Program-made: the position numbers and the translations under genes | DNA from: Eledone cirrhosa | Taxonomy: Eukaryota | Reading direction: 5' to 3' | Assembly: GCA_964016885.1 (NCBI GenBank) | Contig: OZ024741.1 | Coordinates: 147,064,001 to 147,128,000 of the forward strand | DNA: 64,000 nt | The notes under the pieces: generated by a model | Seen by the model: only the letters and a program-made list of their open reading frames with translations | The model's database searches: none | Told to the model about the DNA's origin: nothing | Shown here: positions 3,045 to 53,920 of the stretch, piece by piece | Numbering within the stretch: the stretch's first letter is position 1 | How the letters are laid out: the number at the start of each line of letters is the position of its first letter

Positions 3045-5008
3045 ATGGCTGACTCAGAGACACTGCTACCTCACAATCTAACACCTCACACCGACACCAC
3101 CATTGTAAATATTGCTACGTTTTCCAAACTGGAAATGTAAGCAGTAGCAATATTTTAAATTTGTCTCAAGCAGACGTTCATTTCCCGCCATTACCAATGA
3201 ATGCAGGTGTTAAAGCCGCCACCACCACCACCACCGCGACAACCACCACCCCCACCACCACCACAGCGACAACAGAAACAAAAGAAAAAAATAAATTAAC
3301 TCGTGATATCGAAATGAATTCAACCAAAATGAACTCTTCCACACCGAACACCACTGACGCCACCACCACCACAACTGAAACTAAAGTTAACAATAGCAAA
3401 AATAACGATAACAACAACAGCAACAATGAAATTAAGAAAACTACCCTGAGTTTTGCCAGAGTAGCAAAAACGTGCAAATAAATCCAGGTAACTCAGGAGG
3501 AATTAGAAGAAGCCAAAGGAATGGTAAAGAAAGATGGGTACAGGGTCAGCCCCCCCCCCCACACACACACACACACCTAATAAAATGGAGCAACGTCGCC
3601 TATGCACCGTGTCATATCGGACAATTAACATAAAATCACGCCGAGTGGAACGGGCATCCGAGTCCCAAATCCGAAAAGCTTTGGGACATGTGTGGGAAAA
3701 AAAAACCCACATCAGACGTGGGCAGAAGTATGGAACCGTGGACGTGTTCTTTGAAACACAACAGGAGGCCAGAGAACACTCCATGGCCCCATTAAGAAGT
3801 GACGACTTCACACTCGTCCCAAGCTATTGTGGCCATAGACTTGTGAAGATCAGGGTGACCCACGTTCCACCGGCCATCGAAATTCCCTGGCTAATGGCTG
3901 CCGTCCTCGCCGGCATTGAGGCCAACACCAAGATAATTGAAATAGCGAGAGAAAAGCAGGAGAACTGGTCCGGATCTGGGATGGAGCTCCTGATCCAAGC
4001 GGACCATAAAAGCATTGAGGAGATCCCAGAGGTAATAGACCTCACTGACGGCGCCACCTCACCGTAATCGTCGAAGGCAGAAGGGCTAGGTGTGTCGTTT
4101 GTGGTGAAGGAACCTACCTAAGGGCTTTCTGCCCTCAGGCTAAAAGGTTGAGGTCACCTCTCTTACCCTCCCCAGTGAATCAACCATCAACACCACCAGC
4201 ATCAGAAATGCCAGCAACAACTGTAGCAGCAACAACAGAAGCAACTGTAACAGCAACAACCCCAGTAACAGTAGCAAAACCAACACCACCACCACCCAAC
4301 GCGCCAGAACTAGCACCAGCACCTACACCATCCACCACGCCACAACCAAAACCAACGCCTGTGGAGGATTTTCCACTCCCCGGCTTATCGCAACTGGAGA
4401 TATATTGTGACGACGAGGAGTGGGAAACGGTATCAGGAAAAAAGAAAAAAAGAAACCAAAAAAGAAAAAATTCTCTTCCTTCCCCCTCCAAAAACAAAAT
4501 ACAGAGGGAAACAAATAAATTATCAAACAAAGAAGTTAGGACAAATATGCCACCATCCACACCAGCATCACCAACCCCATCACCACAAACACCAACACCA
4601 TCACCATCATTAACCCCAACACCACCATCACCAACACCAAAAAAGTCACCAAAAAGCGTAACAGAAACAAACCCACAACAAACGCAAACAAAACAAAACA
4701 ACCAAAACAATACACACTAAACAGCATTAAATTTGACCAACAACCAATTATTACACTACATGCAACACAACACCAGCATCACAGAAAAAGACTACACAAC
4801 AACCCAAAAGTTCACACCACCTCCACACATACAAATCACTCACATCACACAGAAAACGTACACGACACTAAAACAAAAATTCCCCAAAGACATCGGAGAC
4901 TTCCGACAAACATTCTCCAGGAGGATTGATAAGGACATCCTTCCGGAGGAGGCCACAAGCAGTGAAAAGGATGGACAAACCATCCTTCCTCTACGAGAAG
5001 TAAGGTAA
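3045..5008 (+). pseudogene. ORF1 (gag-like nucleic-acid-binding protein) of LINE copy A, disrupted
   Basis: ATG 3045, Thr/Asn-rich N-terminus, RRM-like segment in ORF 3534-4067, knuckle CVVCGEGTYLRAFCP near 4090-4135, Pro/Thr-rich and basic KKKKR stretch. Several frameshifts and stops; ends AGG-TAA at 5008. Confidence 0.75.
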
Positions 5009-13802: not shown

Positions 13803-14863
13803 GTATTGATGTTCTCGTTATTATTATTATTATTGTTAGTTTATTAATTTGTAGAGTAGTTATATCAATGAATACTGAGTCTTCAGATAGTTTAAAACTT
13901 ATTCTTGACAAATAAATCCTCTTAATACAACTTTCAGCTTTCTATAACAGCAATTGAAGCTTGTAGCATGGTAAAAAACACATTTATTTGAAGTGGAATA
14001 TAGTAGAGAAAACCTTGTAATTGGGAAATGTCACATATCTTAGAAAACTGTAATATTGTTGCCTACACATAAAAATAATTATTAATTTAGAGGGAAGCTT
14101 ATTAAATTAGAAAATGTAGTGATTAATAAGAAGCATCTATATAATCCAGCTCCAAACTTCTATATAAAAAATAGATATATATAGAAAATATCTCTTAAAC
14201 CAACCAGATAATGTATGTGTGTTATTTAAGCAGAGAAACACACAGAGCATCAATTTTGTTATAATCTATAACAATATTGGTAATGGGGCATTGAAGAAGA
14301 ATTAATTTCATCAGAAGATTCGATTAACAGCCATCGAAAAGGAAGTTATTTTAGACATATTTGTCCAATATATATGAAACAGGAATATAAATACTTATGC
14401 ATGTAGCTAGAAGTATGAACAATGTGGTTGACTTAAGATTGGATAAATTTGAAATTTGAAATGTATGCATCCCAACACAGTTGAGGCATAATTGTTGACA
14501 AAATTGAATAAAGTACCCCAGAAGATGGAAAAAGTAGACAAACACATATATATACATACACACAAATACACACACATGCATATATATATATATATATATA
14601 TATTTATTAAAATAACAGATTAAAGATTAAGCAAAGAATTGGTATATATATATATATATATATTGTTATACTTGGGGAGGGTCATATTTGTGTAATATTG
14701 CCAGAATTAATAACAGAACACACTCACTGTTTGGTTGGTTTTCGCTTCTCGCTGTCTTTTATATCGGTAATCTAACTTAATCGGTCCTCAATGTTGCCAC
14801 TGACTGACCGACGGTCAAAAATAATACAGATACAATATAGACACAAACACATATATATAGTTT

Positions 14864-14920
14864 ACATAATTTACATAAATCTTTCGTTGCACATCTGCAA
14901 CATCGTCAGTGGTGTTATAT
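14864..14920 (-). ncRNA. minimal type I hammerhead ribozyme motif (Penelope pLTR)
   Basis: Reverse complement of the 15042-15098 motif: CTGACGA-T-GTTGCA[GATG]TGCAAC-GAAA-GATT-TA. Confidence 0.65.
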
Positions 14921-15041
14921 TTTTCCTCCTGTTGTGTTGTATGTCTACGCCATTTTTTATTCAGTCTGTCTATAAAAAAAATAAAAAAATAAAAAAAAAA
15001 TAAAAAAATGGCGTAGACATACAACACAACAGGAGGAAAAA

Positions 15042-15098
15042 ATATAATACCACTGACGATGTTGCAGATGTGCAACGAAAGATTTATGTAAATTATGT
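15042..15098 (+). ncRNA. minimal type I hammerhead ribozyme motif (Penelope pLTR)
   Basis: CTGACGA 15053-59, stem II GTTGCA/TGCAAC, GAAA 15077-80, quasi-palindromic AGATTT, putative cleavage after A15086, stem I CA/TG plus ATATAAT/ATTATGT. Confidence 0.65.
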
Positions 15099-15356
15099 AA
15101 ACTATATATATGTGTTTGTGTCTATATTGTATCTGTATTATTTTTGACCGTCGGTCAGTTAATGGCAACATTGAGGACCGATTAAGTTAGATCGCAGATA
15201 TAAAAGACAGCGAGAAGCGAAAACCAACCAAACAGTGAGTGTGTTCTGTTATTAATTCTGGCAATATTACACAAATATGACCCTCCCCAAGTATAACAAT
15301 ATTTGTTTCGACACACGATTTCATATAAAAAACCTCGCTAAACTAATTCATTGCCG

Positions 15357-19795: not shown

Positions 19796-19912
19796 GTTTT
19801 ATTTTATTTTTCCTTTCCTTCTTCTTTCTCCAGCCTCACTTTCATATAGATTGCATTTTTGTTTTTAAAATCCAAATTCAATAAACAGACCAGGATTTTT
19901 TCATTCTGAGGA

Positions 19913-20521
19913 TTGAATGCAAAATTTTTTGCTTTTAAGAAACCACTGGTAAATGGAATAATTGTCATGTTTGTGGACGCCACCCCTGGAGGGAAATTAG
20001 CTAACCAGTGTAGAAAGGCCCTGAGAAAGACCCACTTAAAAATAAACGTGGTAGAAAAGCCAGGAACCACCATTAAATCCCTGATCAGCAAAACCTACCC
20101 TTTTAAGAAAACCCACTGTACCAATAGGAAATGTATCATATGTAAGGTGAACCCCCGGATAAACTGTAAAACTAGAAACGTAGTCTATAGCATAAGATGT
20201 ACAGAGGGTACTTGCAGAAACATGACAACAACATACATAGGTGAAACAGCTCGTAGCATAGGTGAAAGGATAGACCAACACTGGGGGGAACTAAAAGGAC
20301 GAAAAAACGGGTCAGTACTATACGAACATGCTAGACAACAACATGACGGTAACATAGACAACATAGAAATTAGAATAATATCTAAACATAGAAATGACCC
20401 AGCAGATAGGCAAATCAGAGAGGCCAGTGAAATAGAAATTAGAAGACCAAAGCTAAACAAAAAGAATGAATGGAATAACAACAACACCCAAACAAACAAC
20501 ACCGACCTAAGAGAAGTATAA
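19913..20521 (+). CDS. GIY-YIG endonuclease domain of a Penelope-like element (C-terminal fragment)
   Basis: VVY...YIG motif with conserved R, H, E and N residues; reading frame uninterrupted. Confidence 0.8.
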   Translation: MNAKFFAFKKPLVNGIIVMFVDATPGGKLANQCRKALRKTHLKINVVEKPGTTIKSLISKTYPFKKTHCTNRKCIICKVNPRINCKTRNVVYSIRCTEGTCRNMTTTYIGETARSIGERIDQHWGELKGRKNGSVLYEHARQQHDGNIDNIEIRIISKHRNDPADRQIREASEIEIRRPKLNKKNEWNNNNTQTNNTDLREV

Positions 20522-24210: not shown

Positions 24211-26270
<2,060 letters not shown>

Positions 26271-26722: not shown

Positions 26723-29334
26723 TCATCATCATCATCATCATCAACGTTTAACGTCCGTGTTCCACGCTTACATGGGTTTGGACGGGGGTAGTCCCACTTG
26801 AGGCAAGAGTGATTGTCTTGCTCGCATAGGACTGTCTGGCAGGTTTTCTACAGTTGGATGCCCTTCCTAACACCAACCACATTTACAGTGTGGGTCTGGG
26901 AGGTTTTTACCGTGTTGCCTACACGGCCACATTACAGCGTGGACTGTGTGTTTTTTTGTCGTGACACCTACACGATCTCATTTGTTTCGGCCTGGATGGC
27001 GCGGCACCAACATAACTTTACATAGAACGGGGTGGTGTGGATGGGGTGGGGTGTGTGTGTGTGTGGGGGGGGGGGGGGGTATTTTGTTAGAGATGCCTAC
27101 TGGCAAGGCGGGTCTTCTCTGTTACTGAGTACCGCCAGAGGTCTCGGTCCAGTGACATTGTCTTGGAGAGGTGTAAGTGTGTGAGGTCTGAGTTTATCAG
27201 CTCATCCCAGGTTTTTCTAGGTCTGCCTATTCCGTGGCTACAGTCTATCTTTATTGCCCTGCACTTTGTTATACAGCTATCGACTTTCATGCGCATCACG
27301 TGTCCATACCAACGCAGCCTTCTCTCGAGTAAACAACATCTGATCCCTCTTATCTCTAATTTTTTCCTTAGTTCGTTTATGCTTTGCCGTTCACGTATAT
27401 TACTGTTACACATCCAGCGGAGCATGCAAGCTTCGTTCCTCTCTAGTCTGCGTATATCCTCTGCACACAATGCCCAGGTGTCACTACCATGCAACATTGC
27501 TGTTCGTATGCAGGCATCGTACAACCTGCCTTTCATTTTTAGGGAGAACCCTTTAGCAGCTAATAGTGGTATAAGCTCTCTGAACTTTTTCCAACCAGTT
27601 CTGACTCTAGCTACAGTACTTTCAGAGCACCCTCCCCCACTGCTGATTTTATCGCCCAGGTAACGGAAGCTGTCCAGTATTTCTATAGAACCCTCTGCGC
27701 AATTGAAAGAGTTAGTATTTTGTGGGCACTTGCTGCTACTTATTGCACCAGAACACCGGCCACATGTAAAATCTATGTTCTTAGTTAGCTTACCTGTGAT
27801 CCCACTACATCTTTTATGCACCCATACTTTGCATTTAGGACATAAAATGGAGTTTCTACCTACGCCTTTCCTACACACCGAGCACGACCATTTCCCAGAA
27901 GAGACCGCCGCCTTGTTTTCTTTCCTACAAACTAGAACTTTGGTCTTAGCCAGGTTAATTTTAAGTCCTTTTGACTCTAGGCCGTGCTTCCATGTTTGGA
28001 ATTTCTTCTCTAGCTCGGCCATTGATTCCGCTAAGAGTGTCAGGTCGTCTGCGTATAGGAGTTCCTATGGGCAGCCTGTCTTGAACTCCTCTGTTATAGC
28101 CTGAAGGGCAATAATAAATAGTAGGGGGCTGAGAACAGAGCCCTGATGGACGCCAACTTTTACGCTAAACTCTTCACTATATTCGTTGTTAATTCTAACC
28201 TTGCTGACTGTTTCTTTATACATGGCTTGTATAGCCCTCACAAGCCATTCGTCAACGCCTAGTTTTCTAAGAGCCCACCAGATAATGGAGCGGGGGACTC
28301 TGTCGAAGGCTTTCTCCAGGTCGACAAAAGCTAAGTAGAGGGGTTTACCTTTAGCTAGGTACTTCTCCTGTAGTTGTCGTACTATGAAAAGAGCGTCTGT
28401 GGTGCTTTTGCCTGACACAAACCCGAACTGCATTTCATCTAGGTCAATTCTCTCTCTGATTAGTTGCGCTATTACTTTTTCCGTGACCTTCATGACCTGG
28501 TCGATTAATTTAATGCCTCTATAGTTACTCCTATCTAGGGCGTCTCCTTTACCCTTATAACAGTTAACGATGATGCTGCTATGCCAGTCCTTCGGAACAA
28601 CCCCATTCTGTACAACTTGGTTAACTATGCGGGTGACCATGGTGTGTCCCACCGTGCCAGATGCTTTCAGCATCTCAGCAACTATTTCCGAAGGCCCAGC
28701 CGCCTTACCCGTCTTCATATCCTTGATTGCCTTACTTATTATACTCCCCTCGTCTAACACTGCTGGTCCCTCTATTGGGTCGATATGGGGGAGACTGTCT
28801 TTCTCCCATTTATTCTCCTCATTTAGTAGCCTTTCATAGTGACACTTCCAAGCTACCTTCTTATCAGTGTCGGTGATGGCAAGTATGCCATCATCGTTAA
28901 GTACACACTTCTCCCCGACAATATCACGGTTTTCCTTGACGCATTGCCTAGCAATCCTGAACACCTCACGTTTTTGGTCATCGCGTTGTAGAACATGCTT
29001 GAACTTTCTTTCCTCAGCTTCCCTTCTTGCTAAGTACACTTCTCTCCTAGCTTCCCTCCTGGCCACTTGATAGTCTACTCTACTTCCCCCATCCCGCCAT
29101 ACTTTCCAAGCCTGCTTTTTGGCCTTAATTGACCCCTCCACCCTACTGTTCCACCACCATGTTACTCTCCTCCTGCCTACAGGCCTGCTCCAGCCACAGA
29201 CTTCGTCTGTCGCCAACAGCAGGTTTGCTTTCAGAAATTCCCACTGTCCCTCTATATTGTCCGATTCTAGATGCTCTTCCTTACTGTCGAAAGCATCAAG
29301 TAATATGCTTTGAAATTTATTTCTGGCTGTGGGG
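26723..29334 (-). mobile_element. RTE-clade LINE copy 1, 5'-truncated, (GAT)n tail
   Basis: ORFs 28065-29216 and 27087-28022 are separated by one TGG>TAG stop. Motifs [49 protein letters not shown]. Confidence 0.93.
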
Positions 29335-29369
<35 letters not shown>

Positions 29370-29438
29370 CTATGTATGATATGTTGATTTAAAACTGCAC
29401 TACCCACAAGTGTTTTTAACCTTCATATCATGCCCTCC

Positions 29439-29509
29439 TATTTTATCTGATGAAAACACAAATGTTATTGCATGATGATATTTGTTTTTGAAATGCGCAT
29501 AATAAAATA
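29439..29509 (+). ncRNA. type I hammerhead ribozyme motif
   Basis: TATTTTAT-CTGATGA-[stem II AAACACAAATGTTA/TGATATTTGTTTTT]-GAAA-TGCGCA-TA-ATAAAATA: perfect 8-bp stem I, palindromic ATGCGCAT stem III, AUA site ending at 29501. Confidence 0.8.
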
Positions 29510-29550
29510 CATGGAACTCATTTAACCATCTTTTGATCTTATATATTTTG

Positions 29551-29638
29551 TATATATATATGTATATATGTATATATATATGTATGTATATATATATATA
29601 TGTATGTATATATATATGTATGTATATATATATGTATG

Positions 29639-29701
<63 letters not shown>

Positions 29702-29736
29702 GTGTATAAGTATATACATATGTATATATATATATG

Positions 29737-29781
<45 letters not shown>

Positions 29782-30002
29782 GTATGTATATATATATATA
29801 TATATATGTATGTATATATATATGTATATATATATATGTATGTATATATATATATATGTATGTATATATATATATATATATATATATGTATCTATATATA
29901 TATGTATATATATATATATATGTATGTATATATATATATGTGTATATATATGTATGTGTATATATATATATATGTATATATGTATATATATGTATATATA
30001 TG

Positions 30003-30035
<33 letters not shown>

Positions 30036-30146
30036 GTATGTATATATATATATGTATATATATATATATGTATGTATATATATATATATATATGTATGTA
30101 TATATATATGTATATATATATATGTATGTATATATATATATATATG

Positions 30147-30183
<37 letters not shown>

Positions 30184-30276
30184 CTATATATATATGTATA
30201 TATATATATATATATGTATGTATATATATATATGTGTATATATATGTATGTGTATATATATATATATGTATATATG

Positions 30277-30359
<83 letters not shown>

Positions 30360-30421
30360 CTATATATATATGTATATATATATATGTATGTATATATATA
30401 TATGTGTATGTATGTATATAT
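29551..30421. repeat. (TA)n/(TATG) microsatellite, ~870 bp
   Basis: Seen directly in the sequence. Confidence 0.98.
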
Positions 30422-30632: not shown

Positions 30633-33017
30633 ATCATCAACATCATCATCGTTTAACGTCCGTGTTCCACGCTTGCATGGGTTTGGACGGGAGTTTTCCC
30701 ACTTGAGGCAAGAGTGGCTGTGTTGCTCGCATAGGACTATCTGGCGGGTTTTTCTACAATTGGATGCCCTTCCTAACACCAACCACATTTACAGTGTGGG
30801 ACTGAGAGGTTTTTACCGTGTTACCTACACGGCCACATTACAGCGTGGACTGTCTGGCGGGTTTTCTACAGCTGGATGCCCTTCCTAACACCAACCACAT
30901 TTACAGTGTGGGACTGGGAGGTTTTTACCGTGTTGCCTACACGGCCACATTACAGCGTGGACTGTGTGTTTTTTTGTCGTGACACCTACACGATCTCATT
31001 TGATTCGGCCTGGATGTTGTGGCACCAACATAACTTTACATTGAAAGGGGCGGTGTGGATGGGGTGTGGGAGGGGGGGGGGGGGGTATTTTGTTAGAGAT
31101 GCCTACTGACTGTAGTAGGTTTTACTTTGTATTTAGGTAAGGCGGGTCTTCTGTATTACTGAGTACCGCCAAAGGTCTCGGTCCAGTGACATTGTCTTGG
31201 AGAGGTGTAAGTGTGTGAGGTCTGAGTTTATCAGCTCGTCCCAGGTTTTTCTAGGTCTGCCTATTCCGTGGCTACCGTCTATCTTTATTGCCCTGCACTT
31301 TTTTATACAGCTGTCATCTTTCAGGCGCATCACGTGACCATACCAACGTAGCCTTCTCTCGAGTAAACAACATCTGATCCCTCTTATTTCTAATTTTTCC
31401 CTTAGTTCGTTTATGCTTTGCCGTTCGCGTATATTACTATTACACATCCAGCGGAGCATGCAAGCTTCGTTCCTCTCTAGTCTGCGTATATCCTCTGCAC
31501 ACAATGCCCAGGTCTCACTGCCATGCAACATTGTTGTTCGTATGCAGGCATCATACAGCCTACCTTTCATTTTTAGGGAGAACCCTTTAGCGGCTAATAG
31601 TGGTATAAGCTCTCTGAACTTTTTCCATCTAGTTCTGACTCTAGCTACTGTACTTTCAGAGCACCCTCCCCCACTGCTGATTTTGTCACCCAGGTAACGG
31701 AAGCTGTCTACTATTTCTATAGAACCCTCTGCGCAATTGAAAGAGCTAGTATTTTGTGGGCACTTGCTGCTACTTATTGCACCAGAACACCGGCCACATG
31801 TAAAAATTTATGTTCTTAGTTAGCTTACCTATGATCCCACTACATCTTTTATGCACCCATACTTTACATTTGGGACATAAAATGGAGTTTCTACCTACGC
31901 CTTTCCTACACACTGAGCATGGCCATTTCCCGGAAGGGACCGGCACCTTATTTTCTTTCCTACAAAGTAGAACTTTAGTCTTAGCCAGGTTAATTTTAAG
32001 GCCTTTTGATTCTAGGCCGTGCTTCCATGTTTGGAATTTCTTCTCTCGCTCCGCCATTGATTCAGCTATGAGCGTTAGATCATCTGCGTATAGGAGTTCC
32101 CATGGGCAGCCGGTCTTGAACTCCACTGTTATAGCCTGAAGGGCAATAAGAAATAGTAGGGGCCTAAGAACAGAGCCCTGATGAACACCAACTTTTACGC
32201 TAAACTCTTCACTATATTCGTTGTTAATTCTAACCTTGCTGACTGTTTCTTTATACATGGCTTGTATAGCTCTCACAAGCCATTCGTCAACACCTTGTTT
32301 TCTAAGAGCCCACCAGATAATGGAACGGGGGACTCTGTTGAAGGCTTTCTCCAAGTCGAGGAAAGCTAAGTATAAGGGTTTACTTTTAGCTAGATACTTC
32401 TCCTATAGTTGTCGTACAATGAAAAGAGCGTCTGTGGTACTTTTGCCTGACACAAACCCGAACTGCATTTCATCTAGATCGATTCTCTCTCTGATTAGTT
32501 GCGCTATTACTTTTTCCGTGACCTTCATGACCTGGTCGATTAGTTTAATGCCTCTATAGTTACTCCTATCTAGGGCATCTCTTTTACCCTTGTAGCAGTT
32601 AATGATGATGCTGCTACGCCAGTCCTTCGGAACAACCCCATTCTGTATGACTTGGTTTACTATCCGGGTGACCATGGTGTGTCCCACCATTCCAGAGGCT
32701 TTCAGCATCTCAGCAACTATTTCCGAAGGCCTAGCCGCCCTACCCGTCTTCATATCTTTGATTGACTTACTTATTATACTACCTTCGACTAACACTGCTG
32801 GTCCCTCTATTGGGTCGATGTGGGGGAGACTGTCTTTCTCCCATTTATTCTCCCCATTTAGTAGCCTTTCGTAGTGACACTTCCAAGCTACCTTCTTATC
32901 AGCATCAGTGATGGCAAGTACGCCATCATCGTTAAGTACACACTTCTCCCCGACAATATCACGGTTTTCCTTGACACATTGCATAGCAATCCTGAACACC
33001 TCACGTTTTTGGTCCTC
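30633..33017 (-). mobile_element. RTE-clade LINE copy 2, 5'-truncated
   Basis: ORFs 32403-33017, 31770-32354 and 31133-31570 are nearly identical to copy 1; (CAT)n at the 3' end. Confidence 0.93.
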
Positions 33018-49176: not shown

Positions 49177-49910
49177 GACCTCCATCAGTTCTTATGACAT
49201 AACGCACGTGCACATGTGTGTGTGTGTTTGTGTGTTAGACCTCCGTCAGTTCTGATCACATGACATGTGTGTGTGTGTGTGTATGTACATGTATGTGTGC
49301 GTGTGTTTGTGTGTGAGACCTCCGTCAGTTCTGATCACATAACGTGTGTGTGTGGGGGGGGGTTAAACCTCTGTCAGTTCTGATCACATAACGTGTGTGT
49401 GTGTGTGTGTGTGTGTGGTTTAAACCTCTGTCAATTCTGATCACATAATGTGTGTGTGTGTGTGTGTGGTTTAAACCTCTGTCAGTTCTGATCACATAAC
49501 ATGTGTGTGTGTGTGTGTGTGTGGCAGTTTAAACCTCTGTCAGTTCTGATCACATAACGTGTGTGTGTGTGGCAGTTTAAACCTCTGTCAGTTCTGATCA
49601 CATAACGTGTGCGTGTGTGTGGTTTAAACCTCTGTCAGTTCTGATCACATAACATGTGTGTGTGGTTTAAACCTCTGTCAGTTCTGATCACATAACGTGT
49701 GTGTGTGTGTGTGTGTGTGTGTGGTTTAAACCTCTGTCAGTTCTGATCACATAACGTGTGGGTGTGTGTGGTTTAAACCTCAGTCAGTTCTGATCCCATT
49801 ATGTGTGTGTGTGTGTGTGTGGTTTAAACCTCTATCAATTCTGATCCCATTATGTGTGTGTGTGTGTGTATTTTAAACCTCCACTAGTTCTGATCACATG
49901 ACATGTGTGG
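49177..49910. repeat. minisatellite: 14 copies of a ~30 bp core separated by variable (GT)n
   Basis: Core (GGTTTA)AACCTCTGTCAGTTCTGATCACATAAC, with copies starting from 49177 to 49875. Confidence 0.95.
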
Positions 49911-50109
49911 GAGTATGTGTGTCACCATAAAATGCACTTGGTATAGATGCAGGCTTCTGGCTCTACTGGAAGGTCAGTGGCCCGCTTGACTATTAAATCA
50001 ACTAGTGAAGACCCATCCAGCCATTGGTAGCAAGGAAAATAGACATTAAATGATGATGGTGATGATATATATATATATATATATATACATGCATATATCA
50101 TATATATAT

Positions 50110-52251
50110 CATCATCATCATCATCGTTTAACGTCCATGTTCCACGCTTGCATGGGTTTGGACAGGAGTTTTCCCACTTGAGGCAAGAGTGTTTATCTTG
50201 CTTGCATAGGACTATCTGGCGGGTTTTCTACAGCTGGATGCCCTTCCTAACACCAACCACATTTACAGTGTGGGGCTGGGAGGTTTTTACCGTGTTGCCT
50301 ACACGGCCACATTACAGCGTGGACTGTGTGTTTTTTTGTCGTGACACCTACACGATCTCATTTGTTTCGGCCTAGATGCTGTGGTACCAACATAACTTTA
50401 CATTGAAAGGGGTGGTGTGGATGGGGTGGGGGTAGTGGGACGGGTGTATTTTGTTAGAGGTGCCTACTGACTGTAGTAGGTTTCACTTTGTATTTAGGTA
50501 AGGCGGGTCTTCTCTATTACTGAGTACCGCCAAAGATCTCGGTCCAGTGACATTGTCTTGGAGAGGTGTAAGTGTGTGAGGTCGGAATTTATCAGGTCGT
50601 CCCAGGTTTTTCTGGGTCTGCCTACTCCGTCGCTACCGTCTATCTTTATTGCCCTGCACTTTTTTTATACAGCTGTCGTCTTTCATGCGCATCACGTGAC
50701 CATACCAACGTAGCCTTCTCTCGAGTAAACAACATCTGATCCCTCTTATTTCTAATTTTTCCCTTAGTTCGTTTATGCTTTGCCGTTCACGTATATTACT
50801 ATTACACATCCAGCGGAGCATGCAAGCTTCGTTCCTCTCTAGTCTGCGTATATCCTCTGCACACAATACCCAGGTCTCACTGCCATGCAACATTGCTGTT
50901 CGTATGCAGGCATCATAGAGCCTGCCTTTCATTTTTAGGGAGAACCCTTTAGCGGCTAATAGTGGTATAAGCTCTCTGAACTTTTTCCATCCGGTTCTGA
51001 CTCTAGCTACTGTACTTGCTGACTGTTTCTATATACATGGCTTGTATAGCTCTCACAAGCCATTCATCAACACCTAGTTTTCTAAGAGCCCACAAGATAA
51101 TGGGGCGGGGGACTCTGTCGAAGGCTTTCTCCAAGTCGACAAAAGCTAAATATAGGGGTTTACTTTTAGCTAGGTACTTCTGTAGTTGTCGTACAATGAA
51201 AAGAGCGTCTGTGGTACTTTTGCCTGACACAAACCCGAACTGCATTTCATCTAGATCAATTCTCTCTCTGATTAGCTGCGCTATTACTTTTTCCGTGACC
51301 TTCATGACCTGGTCGATTAATTTAATGCCTCTATAGTTACTCCTATCTAGGGCGTCTCCTTTACCCTTGTAGCAGTTAATGATGATGCTGCTACGCCAGT
51401 CCTTCGGAACAACCCCATTCTGTATGACTTGGTTTACTATCCGGGTGACCATGGTGTGTGCCACCGTTTCAGAGGCTTTCAGCATCTCAGCAACTATTTC
51501 CGAAGGCCCAGCCGCCTTACCTGTCTTCATATCTTTGATTGCCTTACTTATTATACTACCTTCGACTAACACTGCTGGACCCTCTATTGGGTCGATGAGG
51601 GGGAGACTGTCTTTCTCCCATTTATTCTCCTCATTTAGTAGCCTTTCGTAGTGACACTTCCAAGCTACCTTCTTATCAGCGTCAGTGATGGCAAGTATGC
51701 CATCATCATTAAGTACACACTTCTCCCCGACAATATCACGGTTTTCCTTGACACATTGCCTAGCAATCCTGAACACCTCACGTTTTTGGTCCTCGCGTTG
51801 TAGAACATGCTTGAACTTTCTTTCCTCTGCTTCCCTTCTTGCGAAGTACACTTGTCTCCTAACTTCCCTCCTGGCTACTTGATAGTCTTCTCTACTTCCC
51901 CCATCCCGCCATACTTTCCATACCTGCTTTTTGGCCTTAATTGACTCCTCCACCTTACTGTTCCACCACCATGTTACTCTCCTCCTGCCTACAGGCCTGC
52001 TCCAGCCACAGACTTCGTCCGCCGCCATCAGCAGGTTTGCTTTCAGGAATTCCCACTGTTCCTCTATATTGTACGACTCTAATTGCTCTTCCTTACTGTC
52101 GAAAGCATTAAGTAATATGCTTTTAAATTTATTCCTGGTTGTGGGGTCCTTTAGCTTCCATATTTTTCTCCTGAGGATAGTCCTCTTCTGCTGTCTAGTA
52201 CGTCTTGTCCTGACTATGAGGTCGCTAATTATCAGTCTATGTTGGGAGGTG
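50110..52251 (-). mobile_element. RTE-clade LINE copy 3, 5'-truncated and internally deleted
   Basis: ORFs 51003-52292 and 50633-50932; the RT core is missing at the junction ~51015. Confidence 0.93.
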
Positions 52252-52287
52252 CATATATACATGCTTATACCATATATATATACATAT

Positions 52288-52344
<57 letters not shown>

Positions 52345-52345
<1 letters not shown>

Positions 52346-53920
52346 AATATCTTTAAGTCGTTTGGAAGCCTCGACAATGCAAATGGGTAAATCTCCGGGT
52401 AACAAGGTCCGGTGGTGGAGAGAGATATGTAAGTGGGTGTACGTTGAGATGCGTGGTGTGTGTAAGAAGTGTGAGATGTGTAGAATGGAGGGAAGAGTAT
52501 AAAGGATAAAATTAAAATAACAACACAAGAGAGAGTTACCTTGGGAGAGATTTAATAGTCCCTATATATTTCGGATTCACATCCATCAACTGGGGTTTTT
52601 TTCCGGGGTGGGGGAAAAGGTTGTCTGTCGGACAAGTGCGGAACGCGTCCTTCGCTCTTTGTTGTTTTGAACATCTGAGGTATTCGGCAGAGCGCGCGTG
52701 CGCGTGAAATAGGGTCGGTCGTACAGAGGTCAGCGGCCGAATGAGGGAGTGGGATGGCGCTAGCTGTCAGTCCATTCTCTGCCTGTTTGTTAAATGTTAC
52801 TGTGTGTGTGTGTGTGCGTGTGTTGTTGTCTCGTTTGAGTGTGTGTGTGTTGTTGTCTCGCTTGAGTGTGTGTGTGTGTGTGTGTTGTTGCCTTGTTCCT
52901 CTGTATTGGCAGTGTAGTATGTTCGTATGGTGGAATGATACTGTGTGTGTGTGTAGTTGTCTCGTTTGCGCGTGTGTTGTGTGTTGTTGCATCGCTTGTT
53001 AACTTAAACCAGCCATCTCATTTCGCTTCTCTCTGATCGGTTGTTTATTTGCGGTTGCAGTCGTTTGATAAAAAGCGCTTCCTTGATACGTAACGTGCCG
53101 ACGTTTCTTTCAGTCGCTAGAATTGTGACAATGGGCCTTCCGTCTTTGTTTCCGCATTTGTCTATGTGTTTCCGGAAAGACGAGGCCCTGGTTTTAGTGT
53201 GTTCCTTGATCCGGATGTGCAAAGATCGAATTGTGCTACCTATGTAGTATTGGTTGTACCTGTCACATTCTATCTTATACACGACGTATGTGCGTAGGCA
53301 ACAGTTCGCATGGCGTATCGGGCAGTCTCTGAGGGAGCATGCGTCAGTAGATTTTTCGGGTTTCCTGGAGAGGCATCTTCGCAGGGAGGGGCCCGAGTGG
53401 GCCAGGTGGATGTCGAGGCCCTCCCTCCGTATAGCCTTGCGGATAGCGTTGGTGGTTTTTTCGCCCAGGTGTGGCATTTTAAGGAAGCACTTGCCTTGGG
53501 TGCTTCTCTGTCTCTTGCGTCTGGTGTCTCCTATTCTGTCTGTGATCGAGGTAGGCTACCCGTTCGTCTTCAGCACCTCGAGGAATCGCTTGGTATGAGT
53601 GACACCACTCGTGGGATCGCTGCATCTGTTTTTGATTCGCGCGATCTCGTTCGTGATGTATCCTCTTTTGGCACTGTTAGGGAGGGCGGACTTGTAGTGA
53701 ACGAATAGGTCCCTGCAGGCTGCCTTTCGGTAGAAGTTGCAGTGGATCCTTCCCTGTTCCGTGATGTTGATCGGAAGTCGAGGAGGGCAAGTGACCCGTC
53801 TTCGTTGGGGTGTTCAACACTGAAGTCAATGTTCTCGTCCGTGTTGTTGATCGTCTCATAGATTCTGTTCGGCGTGTCTTGGGAAGATCTGAGGATGAGG
53901 ATATCGTGTTGACCACCCCA
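52345..53920 (-). mobile_element. 5'-truncated Penelope-like element, second family (RT C-terminus, GIY-YIG, terminal region)
   Basis: ORF 53004-53477 has YVVYKIEC..YYIGSTIRSLHIRIKEH..LRIKEALFI...P.IN. Upstream frameshifted RT end (G.LPFLD-like) at 53677-53916. Confidence 0.82.

Follow-up and report, generated by a model that had tools for sequence, protein, structure and literature searches.

Probable origin of a hammerhead-bearing pLTR stub in Eledone cirrhosa by run-off copying of capped, uncut element RNA

Among Penelope-like elements, the Hydra clade is characterized in its published description by the motifs RWK and DKT, by CxCx5C, by the absence of CCHH, and by CxxC and CxH around a conserved E and N (Craig et al. 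2021, PMC8557442). The same account reports (TA)n targets, canonical hammerheads and a length generally <3 kb for members of this clade. Hammerhead motifs published for Penelope-like elements are reported to cut poorly even as dimers (PMC4209133) or to need the protein of the element for cutting (PMC11167929). A Penelope-like protein characterized in vitro has two internal starts, elongates both strands and works preferentially on uncut RNA (PMC11167929); the promoter and the transcription start of Penelope itself have been placed within the pLTR (PMC2377424). For L1 and SVA, an untemplated 5' G has been attributed to copying of the cap (PMC3287187).

The locus presented here belongs to a window of 64,000 nucleotides from Eledone cirrhosa, i.e. 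the whole stretch of DNA that was analyzed (contig OZ024741.1, positions 147,064,001 to 147,128,000). Within this window, a solo short arm of ~170 bp is embedded in a (TA)n target (Table 1). From 29379 onwards, this island is 96.6% identical to a copy in locus L034 that is linked to an open reading frame (ORF), and the alignment continues into the TA tract to 29554. An earlier note on this DNA, made from the sequence alone, had described the island as an orphan; yet a 26-mer spanning helix III has 17,660 exact matches in the genome (reversed control: 0), and the search for a parent element which that note proposed yielded ORF-linked copies elsewhere in the same genome. A parent ORF inside the window was rejected; the window holds only the pLTR stub. 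The same note saw no ORF nearby, a statement contradicted by a fragment of an unrelated LINE reverse transcriptase (RT) on the minus strand that ends at 29335. A link between this fragment and the island was rejected, since the two are unrelated and on opposite strands. The fragment (27087-29369), which reaches the left flank of the island, is one of three related minus-strand LINE RT fragments in the window (the others at 31133-33017 and 50633-52352), which are 94-96% alike and each broken at a TA tract.

Table 1. Features of the island and its surroundings, in window coordinates.
Feature	Position	Strand	Remarks
Left part of (TA)n target tract	29335..29377	.	~44 bp, TA-rich
G in place of the element's C	29378	+	likely untemplated (copied cap); long copies read C
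pLTR stub, Hydra-clade Penelope-like element	29379..29547	+	5' hot spot (123 nt before cut) to short 3' end
pLTR-borne type I hammerhead motif	29439..29509	+	descriptor searches, folding, copy alignment
Stem I	29439-29446 paired with 29502-29509		8 bp, all A-U
Core C3-A9 (CUGAUGA)	29447..29453	+	per position, conserved in 78-80 of 80 copies
Helix II	29454-29469 with 29474-29489	+	15 pairs, one C.U mismatch, GCAU loop
Helix II closing pair, A10.1-U11.1	within 29454..29489	+	
G12-A13-A14, palindromic helix III and AUA triplet	29490..29501	+	predicted cut after 29501
GAAA; palindrome ATGCGCAT	29490-29493; 29493-29500		
Right part of (TA)n target tract	29548..30421	.	~873 bp, TA-rich

The organization of the parent element was derived from eight longer stretches fetched around genome matches. 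In L034, an ORF of 655 amino acids lies on the same strand as the hammerhead motif, ~1 kb upstream of it; in L035, the order is motif, tail, 5' UTR and N-terminus of the ORF. At each of two loci, a pair of directly repeated motifs encloses the RT; the spacing is 3,334 bp in one and 3,940 bp in the other. A single ORF comprising an RT plus a GIY-YIG nuclease at its C-terminus, between pLTRs, corresponds to the layout of EN+ Penelope-like elements. The frame from DKT to the C-terminal CxH is free of stops in 4 of 20 RT-anchored loci, where the ORFs are apparently intact. The L034 ORF has no Pfam family, and only chance matches were obtained when solved structures were searched by sequence with the parent ORF; hence, the RT is shown by motifs and fold. 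Eighteen homologues share the RT motifs, and the structural model of the ORF (mean pLDDT 68.9) resembles reverse transcriptases; the matches at ranks 2, 4, 5, 7 and 9 are telomerases. For the nuclease, there is a weak Pfam match to GIY-YIG in one of 19 homologues, and the C-terminal part of the ORF gives a weak alignment (probability 35%, E 4e-4) to a GIY-YIG-like frame of the window. A GIY-YIG-like frame at 19910-20521 belongs to another Penelope-like family, which is also present upstream in L003; a further frame at 53004-53555 (-) with a Pfam GIY-YIG match is probably another Penelope-like remnant. The L034 ORF also includes a disordered Asn/Ser/Pro-rich stretch before the linker, at residues about 430-510, which is absent from the homologues and recalls the N-rich inserts described for rotifer Penelope ORFs (PMC3846280).

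The marks found in the parent ORF are RWI, DKT, a CxCx5C linker, no CCHH, CxxC-E and N-CxH, with one cysteine between GIY and YIG; RWI replaces the RWK of the Hydra clade. By this comparison with reference proteins, made by eye, the parent appears to be a Hydra-clade element of high copy number, and the connection to Penelope that the earlier note had drawn from the palindromic helix III is borne out. The element agrees with the published clade (PMC8557442) in the C-terminal GIY-YIG, the DKT and RW motifs, CxCx5C, the lack of CCHH and the flanking CxxC and CxH, and likewise in the (TA)n target, the type I hammerhead near the 3' end, the one-sided tail and the inverted 5' arm. TA-rich 3' flanks were assigned by a script rule to 24 of the 28 arms that end. 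Compared with the Hydra-clade motifs listed in that account, helix II is longer (15 bp against 3-7 bp), helix III is an even palindrome and helix II is closed by A-U; the tail measures ~88 nt instead of 30-40, and about 17,700 copies are present here. The unit of 3.3-3.9 kb exceeds most members listed and the usual '<3 kb', which is a tendency and not a rule. Judged from sequence, this is a new family of a known kind, separate from Hydra-1_Obim because the hammerhead of the latter differs.

In relation to the dimeric hammerheads described for Penelope-like elements, the island motif is similar in being of type I with a short palindromic helix III and a long helix II. The distribution is comparable as well, with mostly dispersed single motifs of truncated elements and opposite-strand pairs 100-700 bp apart. 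However, the motif does not correspond to the published minimal form without helix III, as the earlier note had it, since a helix III of 2 bp with a 4-nt loop is kept and helix II has 15 bp. Furthermore, it lacks the G10.1-C11.1 pair that is conserved in the published motifs (PMC4209133) and has A-U instead, and its helix I comprises 8 bp against 4-5 bp there.

The sequence of the island motif follows the type I order CUGANGA / GAAA / UH with helices I-III. Stem I, core, palindrome, AUA and cut site are all located where the earlier note had placed them; its long stem II of ~14 bp is also present, although measured as 15 pairs and one C.U mismatch. A strict descriptor (stem I >=8, stem II >=12) had no match in 200 dinucleotide shuffles of the window, and a loose one had two. 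The folding energy is no better than that of shuffles, either for the island (z -0.16) or for the motif (z -0.74). A match to a hammerhead model, for which the earlier note had proposed a search, was not obtained: Rfam reports no hammerhead among the 9 rows for the island, among 150 of 183 matches listed for the window, or at gathering score in 4 loci. Because folding energy is uninformative and Rfam silent, the weight of the hammerhead case lies with the motif and its context. According to folding predictions, closure of helix III in the monomer costs ~3 kcal/mol, and a dimer reaches -33.3 kcal/mol, compared to 2 x -10.6 for monomers, in a double-hammerhead form. The short palindromic helix III is thus predicted to favour a double hammerhead, and the cut after 29501 would be expected only in a dimer or with the protein of the element, e.g. 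between both pLTRs of one complete transcript. The solo copy, without a partner in the window, is probably an inert passenger.

Nothing else in the window resembles the island, in agreement with the earlier note, which saw no similarity to the flanks of other hammerheads. Two such motifs were observed in the window. The one at 19897-19960 (+) is hammerhead-like and overlaps the start of the GIY-YIG-like frame at 19910-20521; the other, at 25880-25925 (-), is of type I, its helix II being short and its palindrome ACTAGT, and has relatives in L018, L034 and L055. Other repeats of the window comprise a near-perfect inverted repeat of ~280 bp with an A-rich centre (14840-15122) and a tandem array of 51/106-bp units with a GT run in each (49287-49922).

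The first 68 loci contain 88 distinct copies, 80 of which span the motif; selection of these loci was by likeness, and conservation on the 3' side is inflated as a result. Variants occur in at least 4 copies at 8 stem positions, all of which retain pairing (A-U to G.U, or U.G to C-G); loop II is freely variable. In 10 copies chosen to span subfamilies, 99.6% of cells are paired, with no two-sided change. The covariation on which the earlier note had staked its case is therefore only partly found: 8 pairs vary on one side and remain paired, but two-sided changes are absent within the family. Since transitions preserve a pair about half the time anyway, this pair-keeping counts as modest support. 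The closing pair of helix II is A-U in 76 of 80 copies, with G at position 10.1 in the other four. Other hammerhead motifs in the fetched loci share the core and have a palindromic helix III with other letters, e.g. ATATATAT. Two identical motifs of another family (L034:6814 and 7299, minus strand) form a direct repeat 485 bp apart and may represent a retrozyme-like unit.

The family is represented mainly by short stubs. A 26-mer from the RT has 917 matches in the genome, and short stubs outnumber RT-bearing copies by ~19 to 1. In a search of the genome with the island (40 of 176 candidates scored), 43 of the 56 matches listed span all or nearly all of it at 94-100%. The stubs are 94-99% alike to the ORF-linked pLTRs and mostly arranged head to head. 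Two 3' ends prevail: for 30 arms in the order of the genome, the end lies ~46 nt past the predicted cut in 14 and ~136 nt past it in another 14, while 2 run into the ORF. Arm pairs consist of one long and one short arm in 39 of 40 classed rows (out of 60 rows, in which some insertions appear twice). The inverted 5' arm and the tail occur at one end only, equivalent to the published one-sided tail. In contigs of 4 runs, which are uninformative on starts and levels, loose contig ends of run X2 fall at both 3' ends and are followed by TA. In L035, each 3' end is followed within a few bases by a weak CTCC...GAG hairpin (4905-4950 and 4820-4865, minus strand); the folding of these hairpins is not above that of shuffles.

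The 5' ends are concentrated at one position: for ten of the 30 arms, the start falls between -119 and -124 relative to the predicted cut. A base other than C before the A at -123 has 5,691 matches in the genome (control: 17); 28 of 30 inspected matches are true junctions and 2 are substitutions, from which we estimate that the starting base of the window copy is shared by ~5,300 copies. Among the first 100 non-C junction bases, counted by hand, there are 39 G, 44 T and 17 A. When the first 100 of 250 junctions with TATAT are considered, a pattern that excludes plain in-phase joins and has to be borne in mind for the resulting 88% G, the following base is G in 88, C in 5, A in 4 and T in 3. 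Both arms end within -121 to -124 in 11 insertions, most of which have filler separating the arms, and a G stands beside the start in 8 of these 11; in 2 of the 8, as in several single-stop cases, this G was possibly templated by the other arm.

A 5' hot spot at the ribozyme cut was rejected, as starts there are rare: a base other than A before the predicted cut has only 243 matches, of which 13 out of 30 are junctions (one of them borderline), corresponding to ~100 copies as against ~5,300 at -123, though copies joined through an A are left out of this estimate. Nor is the hot spot at -123 a target site within older copies, because the DNA upstream is an inverted arm or TA and not a 3' end.

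In our judgement, the island, a pLTR stub, was probably made by reverse transcription of uncut RNA of the element, which began at an internal site and proceeded to the capped 5' end. According to this model, the nuclease of the element would nick (TA)n, and the RT would start at one of two internal sites in the first pLTR of the transcript and continue until it runs off at the start of transcription, where the cap would be copied as G. As a rule, both ends of the DNA would be extended, giving a short and a long arm joined head to head; at the window insertion, only the short arm would have been fixed. The hard stop common to both arms, the filler and the extra G fit a run-off at a capped 5' end. 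The hot spot fits a pyrimidine-C-A initiator; neither a TATA box nor a DPE was seen by eye. It lies within the palindrome CATATG, similar to the TA target, so that microhomology can add to the hot spot. Derivation of the stub from the transcript's first pLTR, with the RNA left uncut, would be in line with uncut RNA as the main substrate in vitro (PMC11167929). PAc, a Poseidon element of Anolis examined in that study (Frangieh et al. 2024), is comparable in its two internal RT starts bounding the tail, the extension of both strands, the AT-rich target and uncut RNA as the main template. Yet PAc belongs to another clade, both 3' ends precede the start codon in the E. cirrhosa element, and the accessible account of PAc describes neither a 5' run-off site nor a cap-derived G. 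We found no published cap-derived G for Penelope elements in the openly searchable literature.

A different explanation would keep the same parent and target but regard the stub as a 3' pLTR copy that is truncated at its 5' end in the ordinary way, with the hot spot due to annealing at CATATG or to the likeness of ATAT to the target, and the G due to repair or to the other arm. Heavy 5' truncation is indeed the published reading of such copies (PMC8557442), and clean microhomology joins exist at L058/L059, L121 and L146/L147. Microhomology, however, does not require the 1-14 nt of filler often found between two arms that end at the same base, and the frequent G for a templated C in the TATAT joins occurs in many cases with no other arm as a source. 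We therefore consider ordinary truncation rather unlikely, and lean towards the interpretation that 'solo pLTR' stubs, instead of being truncated 3'-end copies, reproduce completely the first 170 or 260 bases of the capped, uncut transcript.

The prevalence of stubs over RT-bearing copies could also suggest that the island is a ribozyme element in its own right, non-autonomous (a non-LTR retrozyme or SINE-like) and propagated through a separate circular-RNA cycle, all the more as animal retrozymes have been proposed to derive from pLTRs (bioRxiv 10.64898/2026.07.22.740005). The island shares with animal non-LTR retrozymes (ibid.; PMC7229834) the short, non-coding, pLTR-related form and the type I hammerhead. 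But those form tandem arrays, of which there is none of the island unit in the window, whereas the unit here, part of an autonomous element, occurs singly or in head-to-head pairs. The close likeness of stubs to ORF-linked pLTRs, and 5' ends away from the cut where cleaved monomers would be expected to begin, also oppose this scenario, which is very improbable and already largely refuted. That the hammerhead likeness is a product of chance in AT-rich DNA would accord with folding z-scores near 0 and the missing Rfam match. This is hardly credible given the empty result of the strict descriptor in shuffles, the pairing retained at all common stem substitutions, the core shared, along with a palindromic helix III in different letters, by other motifs of the fetched loci, and a position in the pLTR equal to that published for the Hydra clade (PMC8557442).

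The ribozyme itself is ordinary, as Hydra-clade elements are known for such motifs and for (TA)n insertion. The useful part is the record of junctions, which bears on the function of Penelope hammerheads and on the origin of head-to-head insertions. If run-off copying of capped, uncut RNA is true, the genome records the transcription start to the base, and shows in vivo that the hammerhead stays uncut in the RNA used for insertion; it would also account for the ~19 to 1 excess of ribozyme stubs over coding copies. For the model of two starts and an uncut template, this young family offers a start site predicted to the base, junctions in the thousands and ORFs that seem intact.
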